A stretch of DNA of 64,000 bases from a virus (lineage: Duplodnaviria > Caudoviricetes). Below, in pieces: positions 1 to 52,338 of this stretch. The notes beneath the pieces were generated by a model. That model saw nothing but the letters and a program-made list of their open reading frames with translations, had not been told where the DNA came from and did not search any database. Location: positions 105,749 through 169,748 of the IMG/VR virus record IMGVR_UViG_3300037255_000025; one strand, 5' to 3'. Position 1 is the stretch's first letter. Each line of letters starts with the position of its first letter. A program made the translations under genes and the position numbers.

Positions 1-858
1 ATGGCCGGCAAGGCCGCGCTGGGGTTCGCCCGGACGCTGCGTCGGATCCTGCGGGAGCGACGTCCGGGTTACCTGGCGGTTGCGGTCGACAACGCGCTGC
101 CGACGTTCCGCCACGACCTGTTCCGGCAGCACTCGGCCATGTTGGGCGCCGAGGACTACAAGGCCGACCGGGTCAAGCGGATCAAGCCCCACGAGCGCGC
201 GGCCGTGTTGGAGCAGATTCGCACGGCCCAGGAGCTGCTCGAAGACGCGTACGGCGTCCGGTGCCTCGCGGCCCGGGGGTACGAGGGGGACGACGTCTTG
301 GCGACGCTGGCCCAGCGCGGGCTCGACGCTGGGCTGAAGGTCGTGGTGGTCGCGTATGACAAGGACATGTTCCAGCTCGTGCAGCAGGACCGCTGTTGGG
401 TCTGGGATGGCGAGGGTCGGGTGTTCGACGCCGCGGCGGTCGAGGCCAAGCTCGGGTGCGCGCCGGACCGCGTGGTCGACTTCATGTCGATCGTGGGCGA
501 CTCGACCGATGGCGTGCGGGGCGTCGTCGGGGCCGGACCGGTCGCGGCGTTGAAGGTCTTGGCGGCGTTCCCAACGCTCGATGCCGCGCTAGAGTCGGCG
601 GAGCGTGGCGACCAGGACCACCCGCTGTGGCAGCAGGATCCGCGGCTCTGGGCCAAGGTGGTGTCGCAGCAGCGTCAAGCGCAGCTTTGCCGCCAGCTTG
701 TGACGCTCGCGCGTGACGTCCCGCTGGCCGTGACGCTCCAGGAGCTGAGCCTGTCGGCCTCGATGGCGGTGGAGCTAGCGCTCCAGGACACGACGGCGTC
801 CGAGGCCGACCCTGTTGACGGTCCCGAGGCGTTCGAGTGGTCGGTGGCGGATGTTTAG
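1..858 (+). CDS. 5'-3' exonuclease / flap endonuclease (Pol I N-terminal-like), possibly 5'-truncated
   Basis: Motifs AVAVD, TFRH, YKADR, GYEGDD, DKDMFQL and GDSTDGVRGVVGAG (helix-hairpin-helix). Confidence 0.9.
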   Translation: MAGKAALGFARTLRRILRERRPGYLAVAVDNALPTFRHDLFRQHSAMLGAEDYKADRVKRIKPHERAAVLEQIRTAQELLEDAYGVRCLAARGYEGDDVLATLAQRGLDAGLKVVVVAYDKDMFQLVQQDRCWVWDGEGRVFDAAAVEAKLGCAPDRVVDFMSIVGDSTDGVRGVVGAGPVAALKVLAAFPTLDAALESAERGDQDHPLWQQDPRLWAKVVSQQRQAQLCRQLVTLARDVPLAVTLQELSLSASMAVELALQDTTASEADPVDGPEAFEWSVADV

Positions 859-884
859 TCGCACCGCGGGGTAAGGTGGACGAA

Positions 885-1688
885 GTGAGCATCCTATCTG
901 ACAGCGCGGTCCTGGTCGCCATGGACCAAAAGCGCATCGTGATCGATCCGTTCGACCGAGCGCGCCTGGGGTCAAACAGCTACGACGTTGCGCTCGGCCC
1001 GCGCCTGCTGGTCTACGAGACCGAGGAGCCGATCCTGCGTCCGGATGGCCGCGTTTTCTTCCCGGGCGCGCCGACCATCCTGGACGTCCGAAAGCAAAAC
1101 CCGACGATGACGGTCGACATCCCGGAGTCCGGGATCGTCCTGCACCCCGGGCAGCTCTACCTGGGCTCGACGATTGAGCGGACCGAGAGCCACGACTTCG
1201 TGCCGGTGCTGTGTGGCAAGAGCAGCCTCGGTCGGTTGGGCCTTTCCGTGCACGTTACCGCAGGATTCGGGGATGTAGGATTCTGCGGGGCATGGACGTT
1301 GGAGCTGATGGTCGTGCGCCCGCTCCGCATCTACGCCGGCATGCCGGTGGCGCAGATCGCCTGGCACACCGTCGAGGGTTTGGTTCTGCGACCGTACGGG
1401 TTCAAGCCGGGGGCGAAGTATGCGAACCAGTCGGCGGACCCGGTGGCGTCGGAGATGTGGCGGAACTTCGACGGCCTGAAGCCTGACGAGTGGCGACCGA
1501 CCCCTAGCCGCGACCTTCCGCCGTTTAAGCTCAAGCCCGACGAGCGATCACAGCGCTGGCGCGACGCCGAGGCCCTGTGTGGTCCAGGCTACTGCCCACC
1601 CGACGCGCTCAAGATCATCGAGGAAGAGCAGGCCGCGTACGACGCCAAGCTGTCCGCAGTAAACCTCGACGGTGTGGGGCGGCCGTGA
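885..1688 (+). CDS. dcd: dCTP deaminase
   Basis: ILSD N-terminus, NSYDV, GKSSLGRLGL.VHVTAGFGDVGF.G.WTLEL, KY.NQ; GTG at 885 follows GGGTAAG motif. Confidence 0.92.
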   Translation: MSILSDSAVLVAMDQKRIVIDPFDRARLGSNSYDVALGPRLLVYETEEPILRPDGRVFFPGAPTILDVRKQNPTMTVDIPESGIVLHPGQLYLGSTIERTESHDFVPVLCGKSSLGRLGLSVHVTAGFGDVGFCGAWTLELMVVRPLRIYAGMPVAQIAWHTVEGLVLRPYGFKPGAKYANQSADPVASEMWRNFDGLKPDEWRPTPSRDLPPFKLKPDERSQRWRDAEALCGPGYCPPDALKIIEEEQAAYDAKLSAVNLDGVGRP

Positions 1689-1933
1689 GCTACGTGGTCC
1701 GGATATCAAGCGGGTATGACCGCTTGGCCTCCTTTTACGTGGCCGACGACGGGAGGATCACGGCGCAATTCGAGGATGCTAAGGAGTACCCGACGGTGGA
1801 GGCGGCCGAGCGAACGACGTTCTGGGTTGCGCGTGTCTGGGTAGGTTATGACGTACGTGTCGTAGACCTTGCGGAAGAACTCCTGACGCGAGAAGCCGCG
1901 CGTCAGGTTGGCGTCGAGGACCCGCTGTGGTGA
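1685..1933 (+). CDS. small paralogue family member (VVxLADExLExEA family)
   Basis: SYVVRI...AKEYPTVEAA...VVDLAEELLTREAAR; GTGA overlap with dcd stop. Confidence 0.75.
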   Translation: MSYVVRISSGYDRLASFYVADDGRITAQFEDAKEYPTVEAAERTTFWVARVWVGYDVRVVDLAEELLTREAARQVGVEDPLW

Positions 1934-2235
1934 GCGGCGCCGCGTGGTTGTTGGTGATGCCGCGACCCCCGGGGGTGAGCCGGCCTGCGCTGATGTGGTA
2001 TGTTGGGGGCGCAACCTGGACGTACGACGCGCTCCGCGCGACCGCGTTCCCGACCGCCGAGGCCGCCAAGGCCCAGGTCGACGCCGCCGCGATGGGGCTC
2101 GGCCCCAAGGTCGCGTTGCGCGTCCGGGCGGTGCTGTTCGCGGAGGTGCTGCGCGAGAACGAGGCGGTGCTGCGGCGTGCGGTGCCTGTCCTGACGGACC
2201 CACGGGGCGGTCCTGGGGGACGGGGCCGTGGTTAG
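1927..2235 (+). CDS. small paralogue family member
   Basis: AWLLVM...WY...ATAFPTAEAA...VLFAEVLRENEA. Confidence 0.7.
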   Translation: MVSGAAWLLVMPRPPGVSRPALMWYVGGATWTYDALRATAFPTAEAAKAQVDAAAMGLGPKVALRVRAVLFAEVLRENEAVLRRAVPVLTDPRGGPGGRGRG

Positions 2236-2487
2236 GCGCCAAGGGCCTTTCGTCGTTCGGGTCGAGACCTGGGAGGAAGACAAGCCCGTGGCCTTCTGCC
2301 GTTGTCACCCGCGTGCTCGCGGCGAGGTCGCCTGACGCGTCACCCGTCGTTGGCCGCGGCGTTCGCGGTCGTTGGCCAAGCAAACGTTCTGGCCACCCGA
2401 TACGCCCGAAAGTACGGGTGGACCCGCACCTCGCGCGTTGTCCCGCTCGCTGATGCCCTGTTGGAGGTTGAGGCGGGCCTTGTCTGA
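2228..2487 (+). pseudogene. frameshifted paralogue family member
   Basis: PFVVRV frame stops at TGA 2333; VVPLADALLEVEAG is in another frame; one extra G (TGG ACG) would restore it. Confidence 0.6.
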
Positions 2488-2752
2488 GTTCTTGATCCGG
2501 TTACACAGAGACGGAGTCTGGCCGTACTACTGGACCCAGTATTACTTGGGTTGGGTGACAGAGCCCTCGCGGGCGACCCCCTACTTGGAGGAGGAAGCGC
2601 GCGAGGAACTCAAGCGCGTGATCCACTACTTGGAGGAGGACGCGCGCGAGGCACTCAAGCGCGTGATCCGTCGGACAAGTCAGCCGAGTCTCGACGTCGT
2701 TCCGTTGTCCGACGCGATGTTGGACCGGGCCGCGCGCTATCCCAACCTCTAG
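2480..2752 (+). CDS. small paralogue family member with internal 45-bp duplication
   Basis: EFLIRL...YYLGWVTEPSRATPY; YLEE.ARE.LKRVI twice; VVPLSDAMLDRAAR. Confidence 0.7.
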   Translation: MSEFLIRLHRDGVWPYYWTQYYLGWVTEPSRATPYLEEEAREELKRVIHYLEEDAREALKRVIRRTSQPSLDVVPLSDAMLDRAARYPNL

Positions 2753-2994
2753 CCCAACGCCTCCTCTTCGAAGTGGCGCAGGCCGTGGAGGGACCTCGGC
2801 GCGCGCAACGCGGCGCTCGGGCGCGAGCGTGCGACCGCCGCCCAGACGGCCTCCGCGGCTTCCTCAGCCGCCGACAGGATCGGCGGCGGGTACTCGAGCG
2901 CGCTCAGGGGGGCCGTGACCCGCGTACGCCTCGCCGGGTACGGGGCCGCGTAGGGGTTGCAGATTTTGGCAGACTGGGGCACAAAGCTCATCAC
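2749..2994 (-). CDS. hypothetical protein, opposite strand inside array
   Basis: 81 aa ORF filling a gap between paralogues. Confidence 0.4.
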   Translation of the reverse strand: MMSFVPQSAKICNPYAAPYPARRTRVTAPLSALEYPPPILSAAEEAAEAVWAAVARSRPSAALRAPRSLHGLRHFEEEALG

Positions 2995-3241
2995 GTTGAC
3001 CTCTTGCTCAGGTTGACCAGGCCCTCGGCGTTACCCGCGCCGGGGGCTTTCGTTCGTCTGAGAAGCTAAAACCGGGCCGGAGTCGCGGCCCTGGTAACTT
3101 AAGGCTTTTCTAGCAATTCTGCACGGCCGGTAGACGCAAAAACGCATCACACGTCCTACAATTGCGCATCGGGGCGATCAACCCCGGGCGTAAGGGCGGC
3201 GCGGGTTCCGAAGCGTCGCCCGCGGGGGTAAGGATCCGGGC

Positions 3242-3490
3242 GTGGGCGAACAGCATGTCGGCGCGTGGATCGTGAAAGTAGTCGGCGGACACGTAGACGT
3301 GTCCGCGGCGTGGGTGGTGCGCATCGGCGCGATGACAGGGGCCAGCCGCGTCACGACCGAGCCCGGGAAGGCGGTGTTCACCACCCGAGCCACGGCGCTC
3401 GACTGGATGAAGGCAAACCACGCGTCCGCGGGGTGCGCGGTTCCGCTGGCTGATGAGCTGCTTGAGTGCGAGGCCCGACGGACGCCATGA
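3242..3490 (+). CDS. small paralogue family member
   Basis: AWIVKV...KAVFTTRATA...AVPLADELLECEARR; GGGTAAG motif upstream. Confidence 0.75.
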   Translation: MGEQHVGAWIVKVVGGHVDVSAAWVVRIGAMTGASRVTTEPGKAVFTTRATALDWMKANHASAGCAVPLADELLECEARRTP

Positions 3491-3750
3491 AGCAAGCGTG
3501 GATCCTGCGGGAGTTGCCTGACGAGCCTGACGTGGCGCTCTCGTCGGTCTGGCGGAGACCTACGCTCTACGTAAGCGTGTACGGTGACGATTGCGCGGTC
3601 TTCGCCCTTTCGGCAGCAAAGGTGTTCCGGTCGGCAGCTTGCGCAGAGCGTCACCGTCGTCGTCTTTTGATGCCCGATCGGTGGACCGTGGTTCCGTTCG
3701 CGGACGCGATGCTCGATTACGAGGCGGCGCGCCATGAGGCGGCCCGATGA
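3487..3750 (+). CDS. small paralogue family member
   Basis: AWILRE...AKVFRSAACA...VVPFADAMLDYEAAR; ATGA overlap. Confidence 0.75.
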   Translation: MKQAWILRELPDEPDVALSSVWRRPTLYVSVYGDDCAVFALSAAKVFRSAACAERHRRRLLMPDRWTVVPFADAMLDYEAARHEAAR

Positions 3751-4010
3751 GCCGCGATGCTGGCTGGGTCCTGAAGTCGCGGATGACGGCGGAGTACTTT
3801 GTGGCTGGGGTTCGGACGGGAGGTACTTGGTACACCGGGGTTCGGACGGGAGGTGCTTGGTACACCGTCGCGCCCTACTGTTCGATGGGCCGCGTGTTCT
3901 GGACGGAAGCCGACGCCCAGGAGGCCCGCGGTCGCCTCGACGACCCGGAGACGTGGATCGTGGTCCCGTTGGCGGATGAACTGCTGGAACAGGAGGCCCG
4001 ACGCCGATGA
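3747..4010 (+). CDS. small paralogue family member with 30-bp tandem duplication
   Basis: GWVLKS...(GVRTGG.WYT)x2...VFWTEADA...VVPLADELLEQEARR. Confidence 0.75.
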   Translation: MSRDAGWVLKSRMTAEYFVAGVRTGGTWYTGVRTGGAWYTVAPYCSMGRVFWTEADAQEARGRLDDPETWIVVPLADELLEQEARRR

Positions 4011-4297
4011 CCTGGGTCTTGGTCTGTAGACGCCCCGGCGCGCAACGCGGCGCGCAACGCGGCGCGCAACGCGGCGCGCAACGCGGCGATACTTATTACG
4101 CCCGGGACCTGCGTTCGCACGGTGAAGACTGGCCATACACGCTCATGCTCGACTTCGCCCAGGAGTTCTCGACCGAGCAAGCCGCGCTCGCGCATCGGAT
4201 AGAGCACCCCAGCGATGATCACGAGCTTGTGGTGGCGGGTCCTTGGATCGTGGTTCCGCTGGCGGATGAGCTGCTGGAACGGGAGGCGCGGCGCTGA
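4007..4297 (+). CDS. small paralogue family member with (GAQR)4 repeat
   Basis: TWVLVC...AQEFSTEQAA...VVPLADELLEREARR; 12-nt repeat GGCGCGCAACGC x4. Confidence 0.75.
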   Translation: MTWVLVCRRPGAQRGAQRGAQRGAQRGDTYYARDLRSHGEDWPYTLMLDFAQEFSTEQAALAHRIEHPSDDHELVVAGPWIVVPLADELLEREARR

Positions 4298-4575
4298 TGA
4301 GCTGGGTCCTGAAGCAGGCGGCGTTCCACGACGGCCGTGTACCTAAGGAGCCCCCCGCGCCGTACTACCTGGGCAGGACTCGCCCCGTGGCTCAGGACTC
4401 CGCGGCGGCGTGGTACACGAGTCCTGGGGACGCGATCGAATTCACGACCGAGCAGGATGCACGGGACTTCGTTCAGGAGCGGGGGATCCTCGGGGAGTGG
4501 CGACCCGTTGATCTCGCGGGTGAACTGCTGGCGCGCGAGGCTGCGGGCCCGAGCGGCAAGCCGGACCGCGGATGA
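4297..4575 (+). CDS. small paralogue family member
   Basis: SWVLKQ...YYL...AIEFTTEQDA...PVDLAGELLAREAA. Confidence 0.75.
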   Translation: MSWVLKQAAFHDGRVPKEPPAPYYLGRTRPVAQDSAAAWYTSPGDAIEFTTEQDARDFVQERGILGEWRPVDLAGELLAREAAGPSGKPDRG

Positions 4576-4582
4576 GGACCCG

Positions 4583-4807
4583 ATGCCCTGGATCCTGAAG
4601 CAGGACAGACCCTGGCCCTGGTACGTGTGGCGCGCGTTCCCAGCGCTCGTCGCCAACGGGGCGTACCACATGACCGATAGCCCCGGGAGGGCGCTCGCGT
4701 TTGACACGTGGGCCGAGGCCGACCGCTTCCGTAGCCCCAGTCTCGACCTCCATTGTGTCAACCAGGCGGACGAGACGCTGTCGTGGGCCGCGGCCCAGCA
4801 CCCGTGA
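4583..4807 (+). CDS. small paralogue family member
   Basis: PWILKQ...ALAFDTWAEA...VNQADETLSWAAA. Confidence 0.7.
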   Translation: MPWILKQDRPWPWYVWRAFPALVANGAYHMTDSPGRALAFDTWAEADRFRSPSLDLHCVNQADETLSWAAAQHP

Positions 4808-5069
4808 AGGCCGCGAAGCCCGTGTGGATCGTGAGATTCGGGTCGCGACGATCGACGATGTGGGCCTGCCTTGCTGGCTTTACTTGTACATGGACGCCAA
4901 CGACGACGTTGAGGCGACGAGCTGGCTTGACCTCGCGACCGAGTTCCCTCGTTCGGGGGAGGCGCGCCGGCTTCTGAAGCGGGGGGGTCTAGGCCCCGTG
5001 GGCTGGGAACCCGTGGACCTCGCGGACGAGATGCCTGAACACGCGTTGGAGCACGAGTCGCGGCGCTGA
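4804..5069 (+). pseudogene. frameshifted paralogue family member
   Basis: VWIVR in one frame, ATEFPRSGEA...PVDLADEMPEHALEHE in another; shift near 4840. Confidence 0.55.
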
Positions 5070-5096
5070 GTCGCGGCGCTGAGTCGCGGCGCTGAG
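5055..5096. repeat. 13-bp tandem repeat (GAGTCGCGGCGCT)x3
   Basis: Seen directly at the end of array A. Confidence 0.85.
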
Positions 5097-5332
5097 CAGA
5101 AACCTGTCTGCGGGGCGTTCGGGCTCAACGGCGTAGGCGCGCTCTAGCGTGCGTCTCCGTGGAGCCTCCTTGGGAACCCGGGCCAGTATATCGCCGGACG
5201 CGCCAGAAGCGTCTCGTGTGGCCGCGACGCCCCCCGGGCGCCCGCTCGGAGCTTCCTCGGAGCTTCCTCGGAGCCTCCTCCCGCGCCCCACGCTTGCGGC
5301 AAGGGCTGCCGCGCCGGTACAATGCCCTCTCC

Positions 5333-6187
5333 ATGCCGAGAAAGTTCCGTCCCCCGGTCGACCCCGCGCTGCGCCAGAAGCGCCCCGCGCTGCCCCGTAC
5401 GCGCGCGCTCTACGATGAGTATGTCGAGCAGTTCCGCCGGGATAGCCGCATCGCCCGGGTCGCCGCCCACTTCGGCGTCACGTGGACGACGGCCCGGATC
5501 GTCTACCACGACGGGTGGGTCGGGATCCCCTGGGCCCGGCCGATCAAGAAGGTCCTGGAGCAGGACGTCTTCGAGGAGGAGAACCGGTCCCGGGAACAAG
5601 CCCGCCGCGACCGCGCCCGGGAGCTAGAGGCCCGGGAAGCCGAGCAGGAAGCGAAGCGCGAGGCCCTGAAAGCCGAGCGACAACGGGCCCAAAACGAAGA
5701 GGCCACGCTGGTCACCAGCACCCGCCGAGGCCTCCAGCAGCTTGCCTCAGTCGTGCTGGCGCTGAGCCCCGCGGCGGCCCAGATGGTCCGGGTCGTGATG
5801 CGCGAGGCGTTCGACGAGACCGTCGGGCCGGACGGCAAGCCCCAGTACACGCCCAAAGCCATCCCGACGATCAAGCCCGACGCCGCGATGAAGTACCTGA
5901 ACGCCATGGCCCAGATGGCGGCCCGCGTGACCGTCGCGGGCGTGGATCTTTCGCACTTTGCCGCCGAACGCCGTGGGCCGGAGCCCACGGTGGGCGCGGT
6001 TGAGATGACGGAGGAGGAGAACGAGGAGGCGTTGCAGCACGCCCGCTCCATCCTGTGGAGCCTCGACGAGGAGGCCCGGCTGAAGCGGGAGGACGCGTAC
6101 CCGCGGCCCGAGGCCCCGGCGGTCGCGCGGGAGGACGCCCCGGACAAGCCCTCGATCGGGCCCCAAAACCCGGGCGAAGTGCACTAA
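5333..6187 (+). CDS. HTH plus coiled-coil protein; candidate terminase small subunit or DNA-binding protein
   Basis: IARVAAHFGVTWTTARIVYHDGW helix-turn-helix pattern followed by helical region; TACAAT upstream. Confidence 0.5.
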   Translation: MPRKFRPPVDPALRQKRPALPRTRALYDEYVEQFRRDSRIARVAAHFGVTWTTARIVYHDGWVGIPWARPIKKVLEQDVFEEENRSREQARRDRARELEAREAEQEAKREALKAERQRAQNEEATLVTSTRRGLQQLASVVLALSPAAAQMVRVVMREAFDETVGPDGKPQYTPKAIPTIKPDAAMKYLNAMAQMAARVTVAGVDLSHFAAERRGPEPTVGAVEMTEEENEEALQHARSILWSLDEEARLKREDAYPRPEAPAVAREDAPDKPSIGPQNPGEVH

Positions 6188-6188
6188 A

Positions 6189-6252
6189 GGTATATACCTT
6201 TGCTTGCGGGTATATACCTTTGCTTGCGGGTATATACCCGAAGGTATATACC
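6189..6252. promoter_or_regulatory. array of four GGTATATACC palindromes
   Basis: Copies at 6189, 6209, 6229 and 6243 in an AT-rich intergenic gap. Confidence 0.75.
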
Positions 6253-6260
6253 CCGGATTC

Positions 6261-6677
6261 ATGGCAGCTAAACAGAAGCGACTGTTGGTTTGGTCGGCGA
6301 GGGCAGAGGCGGCCCTTCGTCGCGCGGAAACGGAGCGGAGGGCCTCCTTGGGTCGGGAGCTTCTCCCGCGCGAGAAGTCTGCAAGCTCCGTTGTGCTCTG
6401 GGCCCTTGAGTCGGTCGGGTCTCCGCGACCTACTATCCGTGAGCGTGTCCGCGAGAAGGTTGTGCAGGCTCATGTGTATCTTGAGGGCGACCCCGTGGGC
6501 GAGCAACACGACGCTGCCGTCGCCATGGCTAGGCTGCGCGAGATCGAGGCGCACCCTGAGCGCCTCGTGAGGGGCGAAGAACTGGGGAAGCTCCTTGATG
6601 GGCTGGCGGAGTTCCCCGAGCCCTTGGTCGAGTACGACGACCCTCGGGTTGCCGCGAAGAAGGCCCGGCGCGGGTAA
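6261..6677 (+). CDS. hypothetical, possible DNA-binding regulator
   Basis: Basic N-terminus; directly follows the palindrome array. Confidence 0.5.
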   Translation: MAAKQKRLLVWSARAEAALRRAETERRASLGRELLPREKSASSVVLWALESVGSPRPTIRERVREKVVQAHVYLEGDPVGEQHDAAVAMARLREIEAHPERLVRGEELGKLLDGLAEFPEPLVEYDDPRVAAKKARRG

Positions 6678-6687
6678 GGACCGGGGC

Positions 6688-7020
6688 GTGCCCTGGATCA
6701 TCAAGCTCACGGAGCTGGCCACGACGCACTGGCCCTCCCCGGGACGGACGGCGTACCTGCGGGCGTGGCCCCAAGGCCCTGTTGGGTGGCGCGCCGTCCA
6801 GATGACGCACATCGTCGCGACCGACGGCGCGGCCGTTTGGGTGCCAGAGCTGAGCCTGGCGAAGGTGTTCGCCACCGAGGAGATCGCGCGCGCCGCGGCG
6901 GACCGATGCCGGTCCAAGATCGGGGAGGCGCGGTTTGTGCGGCTTGAGTTCGCGGACTGGGCGGGGGAACTGTTGGAGCGAGAAGCCGCCCACGCTGGGG
7001 GTAAGGGACCGCGAACGTGA
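6688..7020 (+). CDS. small paralogue family member
   Basis: PWIIKL...AKVFATEEIA...WAGELLEREAA; stop overlaps tnpB start. Confidence 0.75.
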   Translation: MPWIIKLTELATTHWPSPGRTAYLRAWPQGPVGWRAVQMTHIVATDGAAVWVPELSLAKVFATEEIARAAADRCRSKIGEARFVRLEFADWAGELLEREAAHAGGKGPRT

Positions 7021-8240
7021 AGATCCTCCGAGCGTACAAGACCGAGCTGGACCCCACGGTCTCCCAGACCGAGCAGCTCCTACAGCACGCCGGTTGCGCT
7101 CGCTGGGCTTACAACTGGGGTCTCCGAAGGAAGATCGAGTCCTACGAAGCTACGGGCAAGAGTCCGTCCTGGGTGGATCTCAACCGCGAGCTGAACGTGA
7201 TCAAGAAGCTCCCCAAGGAAGCCGGCGGGGTCCCGTGGATGTACGAGTCCTCGAAGTGTGCCCCGCAGGAAGCGCTCCGAAACCTTGATCGAGCCTTTGA
7301 GGGCTTCTTTCGTCGGTGTAAGAGCGGCTCGAAGCGGAAAGGCTTCCCTCGGTTCAAGTCTCGTAAGCGGGGCATCGGTAGCTTCAAGTTCAGCGGAACG
7401 ATTCATGTAGAAGAGCGACGGGTTCAGCTTCCCCGTCTCGGGAAGATCAAGCTCAAGCAACGCGGGTACCTCCCGACCTCGGGGGTGAAGATCCTCTCAG
7501 CTTCGGTCTCGGAGCGAGCGGGGCGGTGGTTCGTTTCGATCCAGGTTGAACAGGGGCTACCGGATCCCGCACCCAAGCCCACGTCGGTTCTCGGGATCGA
7601 CGTTGGGATCAAGAATCTCGGGGTCACCAGCGAAGGCGAGGTCTTCTCCAACCCGAAGGCGCTCCTGGCAGCGCAGAAGCTTCTCCGAGCGCGTCAGAAG
7701 TCTCTCGCGAGAAAGACCAAAGGATCGAACAACAGGAGGAAAACGGCCGCTAGGGTCGCCCGTCTACACGCTAGGATCTCCAATATCCGGAGGGATTCGA
7801 TCCACAAGATGACGACTGCGATCACCAAGCAGGCGTCGGTTCTCGTGATCGAGGATCTCAACGTCCTTGGGATGCTGAGAAACCACTGTCTCGCCCGGTC
7901 TCTGTCGGATGCCTCCCTCGGGGAGATCCGCCGGCAGCTCACCTACAAGAGCAAGTGGCGCGGGGTCGAGCTTCGGGTAGCGGACCGCTTCTATCCAAGC
8001 AGCAAGAGGTGCTCGGGGTGTGGAGCGGTCAAGGTCTCGCTCTCGTTGGCCGAGAGGGTCTACCGATGCGAGCTTTGTGGTCTCGTGATCGATCGAGACC
8101 TGAACGCTGCCCTCAACTTGAAAGATTTGGCCGGGAGTTCCCCGGTGCAAGCCTGTCGCCCTGGAGGCTCTGGTGCTGCTCTTACGAGCGGTACGAAACC
8201 TCTGGTTGGGCAGGAACCGAACCGGGAGGCTTCCTCGTGA
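7017..8240 (+). CDS. tnpB: RNA-guided endonuclease TnpB, copy 1
   Basis: RAYKTEL N-terminus; RuvC GIDVG / IEDL / DRDLNAA; CxxC-CxxC zinc ribbon. Confidence 0.95.
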   Translation: MKILRAYKTELDPTVSQTEQLLQHAGCARWAYNWGLRRKIESYEATGKSPSWVDLNRELNVIKKLPKEAGGVPWMYESSKCAPQEALRNLDRAFEGFFRRCKSGSKRKGFPRFKSRKRGIGSFKFSGTIHVEERRVQLPRLGKIKLKQRGYLPTSGVKILSASVSERAGRWFVSIQVEQGLPDPAPKPTSVLGIDVGIKNLGVTSEGEVFSNPKALLAAQKLLRARQKSLARKTKGSNNRRKTAARVARLHARISNIRRDSIHKMTTAITKQASVLVIEDLNVLGMLRNHCLARSLSDASLGEIRRQLTYKSKWRGVELRVADRFYPSSKRCSGCGAVKVSLSLAERVYRCELCGLVIDRDLNAALNLKDLAGSSPVQACRPGGSGAALTSGTKPLVGQEPNREASS

Positions 8241-8281
8241 AGCAAACCGGCCCGGAGAACGTATTCGGTCCGTTCTTTCAA
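8129..8281 (+). ncRNA. omegaRNA of tnpB copy 1 (scaffold ends GGAGAACG at 8261; guide TATTCGGTCCGTTCTTTCAA)
   Basis: Identity among four loci ends at GGAG(A/G)ACG; covarying hairpins; 5' boundary approximate. Confidence 0.75.
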
Positions 8282-8764
8282 GTCGTCGACTGCGCGGCCG
8301 ATGCCCCGCCGGCCGCGGCGGTCTCGCCCATCGACTTCCTCAACGCCCAGCTCACCCAAGTGACGCAGGAGCTCGACGAGGCGCTGGAGAAGCTCGAACG
8401 GATGCCGTGCGGTCACGCGCGGTTCGAGCAGCACCGAGAGATGCACGCGAGCGCTACGCCGTACTGCACGGTCTGCCGGATCAACCACGACTACCGGGTA
8501 CTCGAAGAAGAGGAAGCGCGTCTCGACCTAGCGCTCGAGAAGACCCAACAGGAACTCGATCGTGTCCGCACCGCGCTGCAAGAGGCCTCCGTGGTTGCGA
8601 CGAAGGCCACCGATAGGCTTCTGGATTCCCTGCCCGGTCGGGTCCTTCGCCCGTTGCGCGAGGCGGTCGATGCGCTGCGCAAGTCCGGCGACATCGAGGG
8701 CGTGATGAACGCTCAGCGCGACATCATCGATGCAGCGCTTGTGCTGTTCCCAGAAGCAACCTAG
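8237..8764 (+). CDS. coiled-coil hypothetical protein
   Basis: GTGA overlap with tnpB stop; CGH...CxxC motif; start uncertain. Confidence 0.55.
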   Translation: MKQTGPENVFGPFFQVVDCAADAPPAAAVSPIDFLNAQLTQVTQELDEALEKLERMPCGHARFEQHREMHASATPYCTVCRINHDYRVLEEEEARLDLALEKTQQELDRVRTALQEASVVATKATDRLLDSLPGRVLRPLREAVDALRKSGDIEGVMNAQRDIIDAALVLFPEAT

Positions 8765-10391: not shown

Positions 10392-13300
10392 CTAGACGGG
10401 CGTTCGCCTAGCCAAACCACTGATGCTCCAACCAGTGTACTGGCCCGCCTTGATCTGCGCCCAAATCTCGTCGTCGACCACCCTACAGGCGAGCAACCAA
10501 GTCCCCTTCGCGACCTTACGGCCGTTGATGATCAGGTCACAGGGTGCGATGTAACTTTCTACCGGTCGCAAATGCCCGTTCACGAGGACCTTATGCTGGA
10601 GATCGATGTTCCGGTAGTCCTCCATCCAGCGGTGCGCCGACTTGGCGATCTCATCGGCGTCGTAAGTGTCGAATTGCGCGTCCACCGACGGGGACGGCTT
10701 CAGCACAATTCCAAGGATGTACCGCTGCTCTACTGGAGCCGCGTCGTCGGCTTTCCCGACCTCGACGATCTCGACCTCGCGCTCGTCGGCCTTACGGACG
10801 TGGCGCTCGTTGATGAACCCTGGGTCGCCCGTACCCTCGGCTGCGGGCACGACCGGGATGAACGGCCGCGTCATCGAGTCCGCGGAGTCGCTGGCCTTCT
10901 GGGCGAGACCTTCGAGTGAGCGGTCTGGCGTCGGCGTGTTGCCCTCGGCGGCGCGCAACGCGGCGCGCACGTCAGGACCCGCGGCCTTTTGGGCGAACTT
11001 CCCGTCGTCCTCGCGTGGCTGGTCACCGCCAGACCCCGCGCCCTTGTCGTCCGCCTTTGAGCCGGTTCCGTCGGGCTTCGCCACCGCGACCTTCTCGGCG
11101 TGAGCCTGGCCCGCGTCGAGTTCTCCCTGGAGGTCGGCCCAAGCCTTCGGGTCGTCGATGTCCGAGTGGAGCCGGTCGAGCGCGTCGTGGGTCTTCTCGG
11201 CTGCGGTCTTGTGACCCTCGGCGGCCTCTTGGTGGCGCTCAACGCCCGCCTTGTCGCCCGCCTCGGCGGCCGCGACGGCGGCGCGCGCGTGCTCCGCCGC
11301 GGCTTGCTCGTGGTCCCCGGCGACCTTTGCGGCCGCGGCGGGGTCGGGCTTCGCGGCCTTGTCCCCGTTGAGCTTGTCTCCGCCGGGCTTCTTTCCGTCA
11401 GCGGCGATCTGCCGCGAGGTCGTGCCCGCGCGATCGGAGGCGTGCTGCGAGACGATGTCGAGTGCGTTGGACACGACGTTCAGCGTCGAGTGGAGCAGGC
11501 TCCGGGCATCGGTGATCTGTGCGGCCTCGTGCAGCAGGTCTAGCCCATGGCCCGCGCGGGGTGCGGCTCCGTTGGCCGTGCTACCGCTTCCCGAAGCGCG
11601 CGGGGTCTTACCGCCCGAAGCCGCCCGCGGGGCCCGGTCCTCGCCCGACAGGGGCGCACGGCGGTCGTGTTCGCTCACGCGCGCGCCGGTCGAGCGATGG
11701 TGCTCGTCGACGTGGACCGACGCCTTCGCGACCGCGGCCTCGTTGATGTCGTCGAGGAGCTTGCGCGCGGCAGCCGAGCACGACGCCTTCACGTCCGCCG
11801 GCAGGTTTGACTGCGGGATCCGCGCGAGCGCGTTGCGCACGTGGGCCGCGTCGGGCTTGCCGTCCGGACCCCGGACCGGGAAGTGCCGGAGCGTCTTGGG
11901 CGTCGTCTTGCCGTCGACCTTCTCGCCGCCGGACTCGACGTGGAGGAACGCGGAGTCCGGAAGGTCGTTTACCTCGGCAGAACTCCACTCGGCTTTGCGA
12001 ACCTCGGCGAGGTCGAGCGCCGCCGCCACTGAGTCCTCAAACGCGTCCGCCAGGAGCGCCTTCGTGACCTCGGCGGGTTCGAGACCCAACAGGGCCTTCA
12101 CCATCTGCACCGACGTGGTCTGGATGCACTTCAAAGTCGCCGAGGGCTCGTGTTCTTCGAAGGCTGCCGCCGCCTTGTCGGCGTCCTCGAAGCCAAAGAG
12201 GATTGCGTACTCGGAAAACTGGCTGTCGGCTTTCTGGTGTACGGCCCATTGGGCGCGAGTATCGTTCGCCTTCGGCCCGAGGAAGACGTCCAGGCCCGTC
12301 CCGACATCCCCCGCGATCCCGGGGATGAATCCGTAGTCGAACTTGTAGACCAAGTCGCCCAATTCACTCTTCTGAACGAACCCCGCGGGGCGGTCGACGT
12401 GGACCGGGACGCCTTGGTAGTCGACCTTCTTGATGACGGGACCGCGGGGTGCGCGTCCCGTCGGAAGTGGCTGGCCGGGGGCGTCGTAGCCCTCGGTGTG
12501 CCCCTCCTCGCCGACGACCTTCTGCGATACCGCGTAGCCCACGGGGGTGTCGCGCCGGACCGTGTAGCCCGCGCCGGGCTCGGCTCCGCCGACGCGCTCG
12601 TCAGGACCGGGAACCTGCGGGCTGTTCTTCGCCGCGGGCTCGATGCCGTCGTCCTCATCCGACGGGAGCTTCGCTCCCTTACCGGGCGCGGGAGGCCGCG
12701 GCTTTCCCGGAGCCTTCGGGGTCCTGGCCGCAACGCCGCTCTTCGGCGGCCCCGCCGTGGTGTCCGCGGGGTCCTCCCCAGGCGGGGCCTTGCCGTCGGG
12801 ACCCGTCTGGTCCTCGCCCTGTCCGGCGAAGTCGCCCAGGCCCGCGCCTTCGGCGGAGTCCGTCGGCGCAACGCCACTCGTCAGGTCGTCCCAGTCCTTG
12901 TCGGTCATGGACGCCAACGCGTCCTGGATGCCGGCGAGGATCGTGTTGGTGAACAGCTCGGTCCCGTCGTCATCGCCGAGGTCGGCCTTGAACGTGACGC
13001 CGATGGCACGCTGGGCCGCGTGCTTCGCCAAGTGCTCGACCGTGTGTTCGGCCGCGTGAGCCGCCAGGTGGTGCGCCAGGGCCTCGGCAAAGTGCGGGAC
13101 GGCGTGCTCGATCGCGGACCCAACGGCGTGTCCGACGCCGGGCAACGCGGCACCAACGGCGGCGAACGCGAGCTTGACCGCGACCTTGAGCGCGACGGTC
13201 CGCATCGCGGCCTTCTGCTCTGGCGTGACTTCTTTGCCCGTAACGGCGCTCTTGAGCCCCTGAGCCGCGGTCTTGACCAATCCGACCTCGTGCATGACCG

Positions 13301-13883
13301 CGCCCTTGAGCGCCTGGGGCGCGCCCTTGATCTTCTCGACCGCGGACGCCAGCGCGCCCTTGACCCCGGCGGCGAGCTTCGCCGCGCCCCCGGCGGCGCG
13401 CCACGCCGCGACCTCGGCCTTGTTCGGCTGGGTCAACGGGGTCGCGCGCGGGTCGGGTGAACCGTTCGGCTTGGCGCCCGCGGGACCCGCGTCGGGCTTG
13501 TCCCCAGCCGGCTTGGCGCCCGCGGCCCGACCCTTAGGCTCCTTCGCGGGGTTCACGTCGGTGTACTGGTTGTGATGCGCCTTGCTGACGTCCCAGTCCT
13601 TCAGCAGGCGCGTGAACTTGTCCTCGTGCGCCTGGTCCGGGACCAGCATTCCACCCGAGGCCAAGTCGCTCTCGCCCACCGGACCCCCGGCGAGCTTGTG
13701 GAGCGACTGGACCGCCGACTTGGCCGCGCGGGCGAGCCGGTCCTGGGCAGCGCTTTGCGCCATCGCGATCTCGGCCGCGAGGTCACCCCGCAGGCTCCGC
13801 ACGACCTGGCCCGCCCGGGCCGACAGCGCCGCGGGCGTGATCTCGGATTCCTCACGCGGCGTGAGCTTCGTCGGCAGGGGCAT
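10392..13883 (-). CDS. multidomain head protein: PPase-like domain, LPDSAF domain and C-terminal XkdF-type prohead protease
   Basis: DYGFIPG..GLDVFLGP; NDLPDSAF..HVRNALAR; VDAQFD..IDLQH..VESYIAP..KGTWLL..TGWSISG. Confidence 0.8.
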   Translation of the reverse strand: MPLPTKLTPREESEITPAALSARAGQVVRSLRGDLAAEIAMAQSAAQDRLARAAKSAVQSLHKLAGGPVGESDLASGGMLVPDQAHEDKFTRLLKDWDVSKAHHNQYTDVNPAKEPKGRAAGAKPAGDKPDAGPAGAKPNGSPDPRATPLTQPNKAEVAAWRAAGGAAKLAAGVKGALASAVEKIKGAPQALKGAVMHEVGLVKTAAQGLKSAVTGKEVTPEQKAAMRTVALKVAVKLAFAAVGAALPGVGHAVGSAIEHAVPHFAEALAHHLAAHAAEHTVEHLAKHAAQRAIGVTFKADLGDDDGTELFTNTILAGIQDALASMTDKDWDDLTSGVAPTDSAEGAGLGDFAGQGEDQTGPDGKAPPGEDPADTTAGPPKSGVAARTPKAPGKPRPPAPGKGAKLPSDEDDGIEPAAKNSPQVPGPDERVGGAEPGAGYTVRRDTPVGYAVSQKVVGEEGHTEGYDAPGQPLPTGRAPRGPVIKKVDYQGVPVHVDRPAGFVQKSELGDLVYKFDYGFIPGIAGDVGTGLDVFLGPKANDTRAQWAVHQKADSQFSEYAILFGFEDADKAAAAFEEHEPSATLKCIQTTSVQMVKALLGLEPAEVTKALLADAFEDSVAAALDLAEVRKAEWSSAEVNDLPDSAFLHVESGGEKVDGKTTPKTLRHFPVRGPDGKPDAAHVRNALARIPQSNLPADVKASCSAAARKLLDDINEAAVAKASVHVDEHHRSTGARVSEHDRRAPLSGEDRAPRAASGGKTPRASGSGSTANGAAPRAGHGLDLLHEAAQITDARSLLHSTLNVVSNALDIVSQHASDRAGTTSRQIAADGKKPGGDKLNGDKAAKPDPAAAAKVAGDHEQAAAEHARAAVAAAEAGDKAGVERHQEAAEGHKTAAEKTHDALDRLHSDIDDPKAWADLQGELDAGQAHAEKVAVAKPDGTGSKADDKGAGSGGDQPREDDGKFAQKAAGPDVRAALRAAEGNTPTPDRSLEGLAQKASDSADSMTRPFIPVVPAAEGTGDPGFINERHVRKADEREVEIVEVGKADDAAPVEQRYILGIVLKPSPSVDAQFDTYDADEIAKSAHRWMEDYRNIDLQHKVLVNGHLRPVESYIAPCDLIINGRKVAKGTWLLACRVVDDEIWAQIKAGQYTGWSISGLARRTPV

Positions 13884-13967
13884 GGTGGGGCGAAGCCTAC
13901 ATCGGAAGACGCCGCGGCGTCACCTCACCCGCGCTAAGGCGGCGCCGACCGGGTAAGATGCTTCGCG

Positions 13968-37221: not shown

Positions 37222-40035
37222 TTAGTCGGGCGAGATCACGCGCGCTCCGACGGAGCCCGCCTGGATCGCGTGTTGAATCGCGCACTGGCGCGCGAAGCAC
37301 ATCGCGGCGATGCGGTCGGGTGTGTGGGCCGCGGGGTCGTAGCTGAACAGGTTCGACAGCCACTCGCTGGTCTCGCGGTCGCGCTGCTTGCCGTCGTGAC
37401 CCGTGGGGATGATCCACTTCTTGTTCATCATCTCGACCGCCACGGCCTCGACGACGAATTCGAGTGACGGGTTGACGCCCGAGCCGGTCCGGTAGGGCAC
37501 GACCGTGATGGCGCTGCGTCGGCTTAGCATGTCCAACATGCCCAACTGCGCCCCGACGGACTCGACCATGACGATCGACCCGAAGCGCTCGGCCGCGCTC
37601 TCGACCTTCGCGATCGTGTCGGGGCTGGTCCACCGGCCCGCCTCGACCTCGAGCACCCGCCGGTCCCCGTTGGGCATGACCGCGATCGTGAAGATGCATG
37701 ATAGGTCCGCCGCCGCCTTCTTGGAGAACGCCAAGTCCACGCCCGTGTAGATCCCGATGCGGTCCAGCGGACCCTCGGCGTGGTCCCCGAGGAGCCGCGC
37801 CGACTCAGCGGCAAGCTGCTGGTCGGCCCAGTCAGGGTGTCGCTCGAGCAGCTCATCGAACAGGTCCCCGGCCGAGTGACACGGGCGCAACCCCTCACCG
37901 CGCGCGCAACAAGCGTCCACCCACTCGCGCTTGAACCGCAAGCTCTCGTCGTCGCGCGCCTGGCACAACAGGGCCCGCGCGAACTCGAACGGCCCCATGT
38001 CCATGCGCTTCTGCTCGATGCGCTTCGGGGTCCACCGCTCGGGCCAGGCGACGACGCCCTGCTCGTCGTAAACCGGGAACCGGTACAACGCGAAACCCGG
38101 CTTCTTGGAAAGCCGGTGAACGAGGTCGTCCGGGTGCCAAGCGTTACTGAGTACAACCACGCGGGCCGAGCCCGTGAGCCGGCCCATCAGGGTCGCCTGC
38201 ACCCAGTTCCATAGGTGGTCGCGCGGGGTCTGGGTCCGGGTGTTCTCCGAATCCAACACGTCGTCCAGGATCAGGTCGTCGATGCGGGCGCCGTGGATGT
38301 TGCCGAAGATGCCCGTGGCCTGGACGCTCGGGTCCTTCGCGAACACGGTCCGCTCGACCGTGAGCTGGTGCAGGTTGAACGGCATCCGGACGTCCTTGGA
38401 CCGGACGAGGTTCGGGAAGACCTCGTGTAGCTCGTCGGACTGCTGAATGTACTGCCCGATGCTCCGGACGATCTTCTGGGCGAGCTGGCTCGTCTTGGTG
38501 ACGATGACGACGCGGCGGTTGGGGTTGCGCCCCAGGTTCCACAGCGTCCGACCCACGGACATCTGCACGGTGTTGTGCGTGACGATGTAGTCGCGGCCCG
38601 CAACGTACGTGCAGTCCGGCGAGGCCTCCGGGTCTACCGCGATGCAGCGCATCGGCACCGTGTCGACCCGGTCGATCGCTACAACGCACCGATACGTCAC
38701 GCGCGCGCCCCGCGCCGAGACCTCGCCGGTCTCGTGCATCGCTCGCTTCCGCGGAGACCAAAAGACGGGGTCGTGACTCGTGAAGCACACGCGCCAATTG
38801 GGCCCCATGTCCTGCCCGTTGAGCGTCGCCCGCTCCGTCGCGATGGTCGCCTTGATCCCGAGAGACCGCGCTAGCTCCAACACCGAGACGGCCAAGCGCT
38901 GCGTCGTGCTCGAGAATTCTACCCGTGCGCCTGCCGCCGACCCGTCGGTGTCGAGTAGTCCCGCGAGCAAGTCGCGCCGCTGCTCGACGGACCCGATGAG
39001 GTAGTCGGCCGGAACGTGCTTGTCCTCGAGCACGCCAACCTGCCGAAGCTTGTCCCGAAGACCCAACGCCCTAACGCCGCGCCGCCCGCCGCCGATCGTC
39101 ACCGTTACCGCGTTCGAACCCCTCTTGTCGTACGGCCAAACGCTCACCGGCGGGAGCCCCAGAAGCTCGTGACACCGGTCGGCCACCGCGCGGTCCTCAC
39201 CGTTGAACGTGACCGTAGCCTTGCCGACGGACCCGTTCCCAAGCCAGACCCCCAACACGTAAGGCGGCACCAGGTACGCGCGCGCCGGGTATTCCACCGG
39301 CGCCGTCAGCGGGATCCTCCAGTTGTAGAGGTCGTACCGCGACCCGTCGGCGCGTTTAGCCCCAGACCGCCGCGTCAAGCCCGCGTCGATCATTTCCTGC
39401 GTTGTCACGACGCGCCAACCGTCCTCCGAGAGTTCAGCTCGACTCGCGGCTTTGCGACGTGCCGCGCTCGCGGCCAAGCCATCGAGGAAAGCCTGCGACG
39501 GCGGCCGCTTCAGCTTACTCGGATCAGTGCGACGAGGTCGCTGTACCCGGCCGGTCTTTTCCGACGAGAGCCGGCCGACATCCGCCAAGTTGCGTGCGAC
39601 CCAGCGGTGCTCGTCCGACGCCACGATCGAGGCCCCGTCGTCAAACGTGAGCCGGTAGGTGACGTGGTCTAGCTCGACGGGGCCCGCCCACGTCACGCGA
39701 CACGCGCGGCCGTTGCGCCCGAAGACGACGTCGCCCGCAGCGAGGTCCCCCATGGTCCGCCAACCACCCGGCGTCGGGACCGGCGTGTCGACCGCGAGGT
39801 GCTTCCCGCTCTCAATCGCCGCAAGTATGAGTAATCGTTCATGTTTATCGAGAAGACCATGCCACGCGACGTGCTGCGGCGCGTTCGTGATGCGCTTGCC
39901 CGTCGACTCGTCGCGCAAGACGAACTGGTTGAACGCGACCGCGTTCGTCCGGGCCCGGACCGCAAGATTGCGCAGGACCTGATGGCCGACCGCGCTGTCG
40001 CGCGCGACCACGTGTTCTTCGGGCCAGTCAGCCAC
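37222..40035 (-). CDS. terL: terminase large subunit containing an intein
   Basis: Walker A ESGK|T, Walker B LILDDVLD, NAWHPDDL, nuclease GVDLA; GGAGG before GTG 40035. Confidence 0.9.
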   Translation of the reverse strand: MADWPEEHVVARDSAVGHQVLRNLAVRARTNAVAFNQFVLRDESTGKRITNAPQHVAWHGLLDKHERLLILAAIESGKHLAVDTPVPTPGGWRTMGDLAAGDVVFGRNGRACRVTWAGPVELDHVTYRLTFDDGASIVASDEHRWVARNLADVGRLSSEKTGRVQRPRRTDPSKLKRPPSQAFLDGLAASAARRKAASRAELSEDGWRVVTTQEMIDAGLTRRSGAKRADGSRYDLYNWRIPLTAPVEYPARAYLVPPYVLGVWLGNGSVGKATVTFNGEDRAVADRCHELLGLPPVSVWPYDKRGSNAVTVTIGGGRRGVRALGLRDKLRQVGVLEDKHVPADYLIGSVEQRRDLLAGLLDTDGSAAGARVEFSSTTQRLAVSVLELARSLGIKATIATERATLNGQDMGPNWRVCFTSHDPVFWSPRKRAMHETGEVSARGARVTYRCVVAIDRVDTVPMRCIAVDPEASPDCTYVAGRDYIVTHNTVQMSVGRTLWNLGRNPNRRVVIVTKTSQLAQKIVRSIGQYIQQSDELHEVFPNLVRSKDVRMPFNLHQLTVERTVFAKDPSVQATGIFGNIHGARIDDLILDDVLDSENTRTQTPRDHLWNWVQATLMGRLTGSARVVVLSNAWHPDDLVHRLSKKPGFALYRFPVYDEQGVVAWPERWTPKRIEQKRMDMGPFEFARALLCQARDDESLRFKREWVDACCARGEGLRPCHSAGDLFDELLERHPDWADQQLAAESARLLGDHAEGPLDRIGIYTGVDLAFSKKAAADLSCIFTIAVMPNGDRRVLEVEAGRWTSPDTIAKVESAAERFGSIVMVESVGAQLGMLDMLSRRSAITVVPYRTGSGVNPSLEFVVEAVAVEMMNKKWIIPTGHDGKQRDRETSEWLSNLFSYDPAAHTPDRIAAMCFARQCAIQHAIQAGSVGARVISPD
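38572..39801 (-). mobile_element. class-3 intein (410 aa) with LAGLIDADG homing endonuclease domain
   Basis: HLAVDTPVPTPGGW start; HRW, MRCI, VTHN|T; LGVWLGNG and LLAGLLDTDG blocks. Confidence 0.9.
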
Positions 40036-40867
40036 GGAGCCTCCGCAGGACCTCGGCGGCGGCCCACCAAGCAAGCACACCGCCCACGCGGCCCCCGCCG
40101 GTCGCGACCACGATACCGGGCGACGCCTCTCGCACGGTGGGCTCGGGCAGGACAGGGCGCATCCCCCAGATTGAACCACGATCCTCAAGCGTGCCCACAG
40201 CTTCTTGGAGCGGACCCAACGCCCGCACGCGCATTTTCTCTGTGTAGTCGTGCGCGCGCGATGGATCGCGCTCCAAAGTCTCGCCAAGCCGCACGACACC
40301 CAACCCCCACGAACGCGCCGCGTAGGCAAAGTACGACGTCACCGGGACCAGCATCGTCCGTGCGGGCGTTCGCTCCGCCTTGAACAAGAGACCGCGCCCG
40401 CCGAGCGCCTCGACGCCCACGAGGGCAAGCCCGCTTGCGTTCAGAATCTGGTCCGTCCAGACGCCCGCGGCGAGCACAACAAGCCCGCCCTCGACAACGT
40501 CGCCCCCCTGGAGGTGTACGCGGCCGCGCTCGACGCGCGTGACCTTCCCCGCAGCCCGCTCTGCGTAGAGCGCCAAAACGTCCTCGGGCCAGAACGTCGC
40601 CCAGTCCAACCGTGCCTTGCGTCCGACGACATCGGCACCGTCGAAGTCAAAAACAGCCCCGTGTTGCCGTCCGAGCGACTCGGCTGCGCGCGCTCGCTCG
40701 GCCCAAAGGCCCTTGTACCAAGAGCGCGCGTAATAGCCGCTCGCCGCTCGTGAGGCCGCGCTGGGCTCCGCCGAGTCGATCAAGGTAACAGACGCGCCTG
40801 CGTCGGCCGCGACCCGCGCGATAGCGGTCCCCCAGAAGCCGCCGCCCACCACGACGAGGTCCTTCAA
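40028..40867 (-). CDS. FAD-dependent oxidoreductase (DAO/glycine-oxidase-like)
   Basis: VVVGGGFWG dinucleotide fold, ASRAASG, VLAAGVW, WGMRP. Confidence 0.85.
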   Translation of the reverse strand: MKDLVVVGGGFWGTAIARVAADAGASVTLIDSAEPSAASRAASGYYARSWYKGLWAERARAAESLGRQHGAVFDFDGADVVGRKARLDWATFWPEDVLALYAERAAGKVTRVERGRVHLQGGDVVEGGLVVLAAGVWTDQILNASGLALVGVEALGGRGLLFKAERTPARTMLVPVTSYFAYAARSWGLGVVRLGETLERDPSRAHDYTEKMRVRALGPLQEAVGTLEDRGSIWGMRPVLPEPTVREASPGIVVATGGGRVGGVLAWWAAAEVLRRLRG

Positions 40868-43899: not shown

Positions 43900-44009
43900 G
43901 AGACGTCTCAAACTTGCAACGTTCTCCGGGGGGTTCAGCAAGCTGATACCCGGTTCGGTTCCTGCCCAACCAGAGGTTTCGTACCACGCTTACGCGCAGC
44001 ACCAGAGCC
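43900..44009 (-). ncRNA. orphan omegaRNA-like element without tnpB (guide TTGCAAGTTTGAGACGTCTC)
   Basis: 90-nt homology (43920-44009) to tnpB 3' ends, with compensatory stem changes, ending GGAGAACG. Confidence 0.75.
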
Positions 44010-46712: not shown

Positions 46713-46763
46713 GTCTAGAACTATAAGACGAGTTAGGCAGAGCGCAAGTGTTAGAAGAGAATT
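46713..46763 (-). promoter_or_regulatory. sigma70-like promoter, copy 1 (TTGCGC-N16-TATAGT-N7-ATG)
   Basis: Conserved with 59871-59921, including upstream AATTCTCTTCTAACAC. Confidence 0.8.
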
Positions 46764-46778
46764 AAGTTCAGGGGACGT

Positions 46779-52108: not shown

Positions 52109-52338
52109 GACCACGACCGCGACCGCGACCACAACCCCGACCCCGACCGCGACCCCGACCCCGACCACGACCACGACCACGACCTCGACCACGACCGCGA
52201 CCGCGACCCCGACCGCAACCGCGACCCCGACCTCGACCCCGACCACGACCCCGACCGCGACCTCGACCGCGACCCCGACCACGACCCCGACCGCGACCTC
52301 GACGACTCGAAGCCTGCTCGCATGACCGCCGCGTTCAC
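52105..52338 (-). CDS. Ser-Arg/Gly/Trp dipeptide repeat protein
   Basis: SRSGSWSG repeats encoded by 6-nt repeats; coupled to both neighbours. Confidence 0.65.
   Translation of the reverse strand: MNAAVMRAGFESSRSRSGSWSGSRSRSRSGSWSGSRSGSRLRSGSRSRSWSRSWSWSWSGSGSRSGSGLWSRSRSWS

Follow-up and report, generated by a model that had tools for sequence, protein, structure and literature searches.

Three full copies of a tnpB cassette, together with a mini-element, a solo omegaRNA, and three short right-end remnants, are present in a phage genome of 169,748 bp (G+C content, 67.5%) available as IMG/VR virus record IMGVR_UViG_3300037255_000025. The window, meaning the whole 64,000-nucleotide stretch that was analysed, is the last 64 kb of this record (positions 105,749 to 169,748). 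In copy 1, the cassette under study, a short left end, a tnpB gene, and a right end holding the predicted scaffold of an omegaRNA (the guide RNA of TnpB) stand between two phage genes, up1 on the left and a truncated down1 on the right (Table 1). Here, we report the structure, origin, and probable mode of spread of these cassettes.

The copy 1 protein matches the Pfam families HTH_OrfB_IS605, OrfB_IS605, and Cas12f1-like_TNB, and its residues 5 to 370 align to the structures of ISDra2 TnpB (E value, 9e-64), the best solved-structure match. This alignment bears out an earlier reading of the DNA, made without database searches and called here the sequence-only reading, in which the RuvC D/E/D residues and the zinc ribbon were held to be intact; the Asp/Glu/Asp triad and both CxxC pairs are kept in three of three copies. 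A domesticated TnpB of the TldR type (an RNA-guided repressor) was ruled out, since the RuvC D, E, and D are present in every copy. The ratio of nonsynonymous to synonymous substitution rates (dN/dS) is 0.17 between copies 1 and 2 and 0.21 between copies 1 and 3 (dS, ∼0.33), and because values of about 0.2 separate diverged copies, all three TnpB proteins have been kept functional through long divergence by purifying selection. Superimposed on this divergence are blocks of identity, shared by copies 1 and 2 over nucleotides 172 to 379 (208 nt) and by copies 2 and 3 over nucleotides 359 to 1106 (748 nt); the longest identical run between copies 1 and 3 is 86 bases at most. The blocks indicate gene conversion or assembly mixing.

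Orthologs of the flanking genes led to cassette-free relatives with 88 to 98% nucleotide identity. In L032 (a JGI contig), the genes flanking copy 2 are adjacent, with a 7-nt junction ambiguity (GTAAGGG); in L030 (an NCBI contig), down1 is intact, and homology to the window begins at 8261, the end of copy 1; in L193 (a Logan contig), up1 is followed directly by down3, the gene to the right of copy 3. An empty site was also found in this phage, which reads GGGT and then AAGATG where L030, with a solo right-end fragment, reads ACGT and then AAGATG. Four of four empty alleles have GGGT directly before the insertion point, and at occupied sites the right end puts ACGT there. Empty alleles in related phages are what the sequence-only reading had proposed to look for, and beside the motif they match the predicted guides at 15 to 16 of 16 positions. 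Within the phage genome itself, the guides match only their own sites, preceded by ACGT. The T of GGGT may be a motif base or the first base of the guide; the data fit both. An IMG/VR search with the 270-aa gene upstream of copy 2 recovered no relatives.

The right end of copy 1 was located by its homology to L030, which places the end of the element at 8262 rather than 8253, where one missing C had halted the repeat finder. All copies share a common terminus ending in ACGT, which reads GAACGT here and GAACGG in 37 relatives (45 to 73% amino acid identity; viral contigs and genomes). When the last 175 nt of 40 sequences were aligned, compensatory changes were seen at 22 of the 24 pairs predicted in the consensus structure, and because of this covariation the copy 1 right end is best regarded as encoding a genuine omegaRNA scaffold, followed by a flank-derived guide. 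No Rfam family was matched within the window at the gathering threshold, and an exact scan of IMG/VR for the right-end terminus gave no match.

Upstream of tnpB, copies 1 and 2 have only the GGGTAAGGG motif in common and their alignment begins at the GTG, as the sequence-only reading had it. Its further claim that there is no conserved left end has to be given up: two left-end types exist, each at two loci, one in copy 1 and the mini-element and the other in copies 2 and 3 (12 to 16 nt in common), and no similarity was seen at first because one copy of each type had been compared. GGGT and GTG are separated by 14, 17, and 92 nt in copies 1, 2, and 3, respectively. The first 9 nt of the copy 1 left end equal the first 9 nt of the target in the empty allele. 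The left end also weakly resembles both the left-end promoter region of the relatives and the 3′ end of their tnpA; an exact IMG/VR scan for the long left end of copy 3 gave no match.

Table 1. Features of the tnpB cassettes and their surroundings (window coordinates unless marked genome; TAM, transposon-associated motif)
Feature	Position	Strand	Description
up1	6802-7020	+	72 aa; small paralog family ending ELLxREA; last three codons altered by insertion
GGGT beside copy 1 left end	6999-7002	+	Candidate TAM, or crossover core GT; L193 empty allele
Left end, copy 1 (type A, 14 nt)	7003-7016	+	Last 8 nt in common with mini-element
tnpB, copy 1	7017-8240	+	407 aa; GTG start; RuvC D/E/D and zinc ribbon intact
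omegaRNA scaffold and right end, copy 1	8130-8262 (about)	+	Predicted; terminus ACGT; 1-nt deletion relative to copies 2 and 3
down1, truncated	8237-8764	+	GTG start inside right end, overlapping tnpB stop
Predicted guide, copy 1	8263-8278	+	16 nt; 16/16 to L030 empty allele from 6069, with GGGT before it
Empty site in this phage	13946-13967	+	L030 has solo right-end fragment there (12293-12345)
Relic right end (type II)	43919-44009	-	3′ half of omegaRNA scaffold only
Predicted guide, copy 2	53928-53943	-	15/16 to L032 beside GGGT
Copy 2	53944-55207	-	Type B left end (17 nt), tnpB (53967-55190), right end; 1264-bp clean insertion
Predicted guide, copy 3	62990-63005	-	16/16 to L193 empty allele beside GGGT
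Copy 3, 3′ part	63006-64000	-	Continues at genome 1-462; 92-nt left end to genome ∼537-540
Mini-element	genome ∼12425-12539		First ∼110 nt of tnpB joined to last ∼30 nt of right end
Solo omegaRNA, complete	genome 85123-85296		Second right-end variant

Within the window, the Y1_Tnp and Resolvase profiles matched nothing, in agreement with the sequence-only reading that no transposase lies there. In the whole-genome search for TnpA that it had proposed, no cognate transposase emerged, but two Y1 TnpA genes scored above the Pfam cut-off (genome 19597-19959 and 35626-35988). These were ruled out as the source of mobility, as they lie in unrelated IS605 units and have the wrong family association: their elements have hairpin ends and a TTGAT-like terminus, and the TnpB partners of both are 30 to 36% identical to the cassette family. 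A cognate TnpA accompanied by conserved left-end structure, which the sequence-only reading had named as evidence against itself, is thus missing, the TnpA genes found being of the wrong kind. Throughout the 170-kb record there is no PF00239/Resolvase match and no recombinase motif of the YxRVSSxxQ type in any frame. The two Y1 genes belong to complete IS605-type elements outside the window (genome 19576-21220 and 34484-35988; loci L011, L012, L006, and L007), in each of which TnpA is divergent from its own TnpB and the ends are hairpin-rich. Another solo tnpB is found at genome 27541-28716, so that four TnpB lineages, counting the IS607-type family described here, occur in one phage genome.

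Relatives of the cassettes point to a different family. In the closest viral relative, L013 (73% amino acid identity), and in L015, a frame of ∼200 aa directly upstream of tnpB has a MerR-like N terminus and the serine-recombinase motif YARVSSxxQ; of the 13 closest metagenomic relatives, 9 have an upstream serine recombinase (37/80 overall), and a Y1 TnpA lies near tnpB in 1/80 genomic relatives. Among NCBIfam models, IS607_TnpB (NF038280) is the best or second best at 320 to 325 bits (cut-off, 350), slightly ahead of IS200_TnpB at 305 to 313 bits (cut-off, 425). Since many of the relatives carry an upstream serine recombinase and this phage has none, the copies are best classed as tnpA-less derivatives of an IS607-type element rather than as complete members. 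As to IS200/IS605 (Y1) membership, the cassettes have no cognate Y1 TnpA and no evident subterminal hairpins, and their junction is G-rich. A described IS607 case has the TAM TGGG, a right end in TCGG, and no hairpin ends, with discrimination at position −3 (10.1101/2023.11.20.567912). The sequence-only reading had also noted, correctly, that the start codons of copies 1 and 2 overlap the stop codon of the upstream gene (GTGA). In the relatives, the same four bases overlap the tnpA stop and the tnpB start; the overlap is inherited from the tnpA-tnpB junction and is therefore no sign of adaptation to this phage.

Both element ends meet a recurrent phage motif, GTAAGG. This hexamer is not itself over-represented, but of its 61 sites, 38 show an A at −17, which is often part of an AAC lying 14 nt upstream; a start codon comes 6 to 8 nt after many sites, and others have a separate GGAGG further downstream. 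With its upstream A/AAC, GTAAGG looks like a bipartite, promoter-like gene-start signal. A plain ribosome-binding site was judged an insufficient account of GGGTAAGGG, as the A/AAC at fixed distance and the separate downstream GGAGG point to a promoter-like motif. The insertion point divides the motif between GT and AAGG: the left end gives tnpB its AAGG, and the right end supplies GT and, in copies 2 and 3, an AAC placed exactly 14 nt upstream of that terminal GT. None of the 37 relatives has AAC at that position (0/37), which suggests that the ends became adapted to this phage; the type II right ends carry GAAC there. At genome ∼8321 (minus strand), outside the window, a right-end relic of ∼20 nt with its terminus ACGT is followed by AAGG and, 8 nt later, by ATG. 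The gene-start motif at this place appears to be built from a TnpB right-end relic, in which case at least one promoter-like site of the phage may descend from an element remnant.

Comparison of the flanks shows copy 1 to be chimeric. L030 from 1 to 6069 corresponds to genome 6572 to 537 on the opposite strand (95.6% identity) and ends at the copy 3 left end; from 6067, L030 corresponds to the window starting at 8261, next to copy 1. The gene down1 is divided between the two places: its first 22 codons lie beside the copy 3 left end, and the rest follows the copy 1 right end. On the other side, the left neighbour of copy 1, up1, adjoins the right neighbour of copy 3, down3, in L193, whose empty-site sequence was predicted before the contig was retrieved and was then found. 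From this adjacency and from the two halves of down1 at two copies, it follows that recombination took place between inverted insertions; copies 1 and 3 are best explained as reciprocal recombinants of two older, inverted insertions, one placed by this reconstruction inside down1 and the other between up1 and down3. The ∼55 kb between copies 1 and 3 is thereby inverted relative to the relatives, and the same inversion cut an array of small paralogous genes into two inverted parts. The array itself (window 1685-7020, plus strand, and 61500-63000, minus strand) comprises genes of 75 to 150 aa, which end in a conserved ...LA.ELL.REA helix and are coupled translationally by 4-nt overlaps.

The genes beside the cassettes have been reshaped by them. 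In down1, eight element-encoded codons stand in for the 22 original ones; the N terminus of its ortholog P0002 (189 aa) differs, and the gene caller used the GTG at 8237 as the start (P0001). This GTG is in frame with the truncated gene owing to the 1-nt deletion (C) in the copy 1 right end. The end of up1 changes from GKGPS-stop in the empty allele to GKGPRT-stop here. In copies 2 and 3, the equivalent short frame stops exactly where the interrupted upstream gene formerly stopped, just before the next start. That copy 1 splits a single up1-down1 gene was ruled out, up1 being a complete paralog that is followed by down3 in a relative.

We interpret the copies as transposase-less, IS607-derived TnpB/omegaRNA homing cassettes, which probably spread among related phages by cutting empty alleles. 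TnpB is known to retain its transposon at a locus through cleavage of the donor site left empty. In the proposed mechanism, a phage transcript would serve both for translation of TnpB and, when cut, as the source of the omegaRNA that is loaded onto the protein. As the element lies directly 3′ of GGGT, the 16 nt past its right end would act as the guide, and the empty allele of a co-infecting relative, with GGGT and a guide-matching sequence, would be cut. Repair of the break from the occupied genome would copy the cassette across (homing), or the rival would merely be disadvantaged; the cassette's own site would be spared by ACGT in place of GGGT. Empty alleles with GGGT and guide matches of 15 to 16 of 16 positions are what homing or co-infection competition would predict. 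Insertion into a gene-start motif should do little harm, the left end and its flank rebuilding GTAAGG for tnpB and the right end and its flank rebuilding it for the next gene, while the short frame from a GTG at the tnpB stop would end where the interrupted upstream gene once ended. Two terms of the sequence-only reading find no support in this picture. What it called free-standing endonucleases are discrete elements of IS607 derivation, bounded by a precise right end and a short left end and placed at one fixed motif. Adoption by the phage is likewise not supported by the copies, which act as selfish elements, to judge from the relics, the split gene, and the large inversion.

Several findings weigh against homing cassettes of IS607 origin. 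The left ends vary (14, 17, and 92 nt), the NCBIfam scores fall under both curated cut-offs, and the many decayed copies indicate that elements are often lost. At least seven distinct sites are occupied in the lineage, and homing accounts for same-site spread only. Such numbers of sites could instead reflect IS607 transposition by a complete element (in an ancestor, the host, or a co-infecting phage), the copies being decaying leftovers, immobile and drifting, and the filled and empty sites differing by old insertions or losses. Most close relatives are complete IS607 elements, relics are many (mini-element, solo omegaRNA, and three short right-end remnants), and the seven or more GGGT sites go beyond what homing alone creates. 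This explanation deserves real weight, yet we find it doubtful: three diverged copies are under purifying selection (dN/dS, ∼0.2), neither the catalytic residues nor the covarying omegaRNA has been lost, and the guides still agree with the empty alleles found in relatives (16/16, 16/16, and 15/16). Loss of tnpA in every copy would moreover need repeated deletion or gene conversion. Movement in trans by the two Y1 TnpA of the phage, with the cassettes as nonautonomous members of IS200/IS605, would draw on genes that score above the Pfam cut-off and on a best structure match, ISDra2, that is an IS605 member. It is nonetheless very improbable, given that these TnpA sit in IS605 units of their own with distant TnpB partners, hairpin ends, and a TTGAT-like terminus, that the family pairs with serine recombinases rather than Y1 (37/80 against 1/80), and that the junction motif is the G-rich GGGT with subterminal hairpins not evident.

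The record is moreover a metagenome assembly, with a run of 748 identical bases between copies 2 and 3 and with its contig ends falling within copy 3. Assembly could therefore be partly responsible for the mosaic pattern and for which isomer was chosen. Taken further, this would make an assembler switch between near-identical tnpB copies the source of copy 1's chimeric flanks and, with them, of the inversion and the split gene, the real genome being collinear with those of the relatives; the overlap of the contig ends (208/210) and the exact stretches shared by copies 1 and 2 (208 nt) and by copies 2 and 3 (748 nt) lend themselves to such a switch. We consider this improbable, as identical runs between copies 1 and 3 do not exceed 86 bases, the 1-nt deletion in copy 1 exactly restores the frame of the truncated gene, and the flanks of copy 2 agree with an independent empty allele; both isomers may also coexist in the population.

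A bolder version of homing, rather unlikely and offered tentatively, is a transposase-free gene drive tuned to its lineage, with ends that are portable gene-start signals. The ends would have evolved into a −35-like AAC box, the GT of a −10-like GTAAGG, and a restart codon, letting the cassettes sit inside operons without polar damage. TnpB cutting and short-homology repair could move them to other gene starts, and recombination between copies would flip large segments, giving isomers. If this is true, RNA-guided nucleases shape phage genome architecture and inter-phage competition without a transposase.

The homing interpretation has consequences of its own. One phage group holds armed transposase-less cassettes, matching empty alleles, decayed copies, an inversion, and a split gene repaired by an element end, which makes a homing or competition role of RNA-guided nucleases in phages directly testable with defined natural substrates. 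The cassettes also offer a compact nuclease with an unusual G-rich motif, GGGT, as its candidate TAM. TnpB genes in phages have been reported without a mechanism, and a drive of this sort in phages has been described as a possibility only, under the name of non-restorative transposon homing (PMC13565253).

The genome is that of a tailed phage, with portal, XkdF-type protease, and fibre genes present. The contig ends overlap by 210 nt (208/210 identical) within tnpB copy 3, so that the genome is probably circular or circularly permuted. Elsewhere in the window, a 1,163-aa protein (10392-13883, minus strand) combines an inorganic-pyrophosphatase-like domain with a C-terminal XkdF-type prohead protease. 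A 1,035-aa protein (37222-40329, minus strand) matches LAGLIDADG_3 and Hom_end at residues ∼440 to 506, which suggests an intein or an inserted homing endonuclease and hence a second kind of homing element here. Two A+T-rich direct repeats of 71 nt (46699-46769 and 59857-59927; 80% identical) both lie at gene starts and, in a genome of 67% G+C, may be regulatory or origin-like sequences. A long imperfect run of 6-nt/12-nt repeats (CGACCN units; 52072-52330), within the open reading frame at 51506-52282 (minus strand), encodes a low-complexity protein stretch.

Among known systems, ISDra2 (IS200/IS605; PDB 8H1J and 8EXA) resembles the phage cassettes in its TnpB, whose RuvC D/E/D and zinc ribbon align with theirs, and differs in having a Y1 transposase partner, hairpin ends, and the TA-rich TAM TTGAT. 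IS1341-type members of IS200/IS605 likewise encode only TnpB and are nonautonomous (PMC13565253), but they are defined as Y1-family elements and retain structure at both ends, whereas the phage elements are of IS607 descent with hardly any left end. The IS607 TnpB of the CboIStron type (10.1101/2023.11.20.567912) shares the protein architecture, a guide RNA that overlaps the tnpB 3′ end, a G-rich motif by the left end (TGGG there, GGGT here), a right end that mimics this motif with C at −3 (TCGG there, ACGT here), and the absence of hairpin ends and target duplication. Unlike the IS607 systems, the phage genome has no serine recombinase, the left end is cut to 14 to 92 nt, the crossover or terminal dinucleotide is GT rather than GG, there is no intron, and the replicon is a lytic-type phage of 170 kb whose gene-start motif the element ends rebuild. 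A TnpB-dependent drive independent of TnpA has been demonstrated on plasmids (PMC11870625), the only setting, in the laboratory, where such drive has been shown; TnpA is dispensable there, as it would be here. In function, a close parallel may be the free-standing homing endonuclease genes of T-even phages (SegF, SegB, and Mob), which also place a nuclease gene between conserved genes, patchily among relatives. Like them, the cassette is expected to be copied into a co-infecting relative after cutting the empty allele there. Recognition in SegF, SegB, and Mob differs from that of the phage cassettes, where a guide RNA and a 4-nt motif would find the target and the presence of the insert would separate self from non-self.

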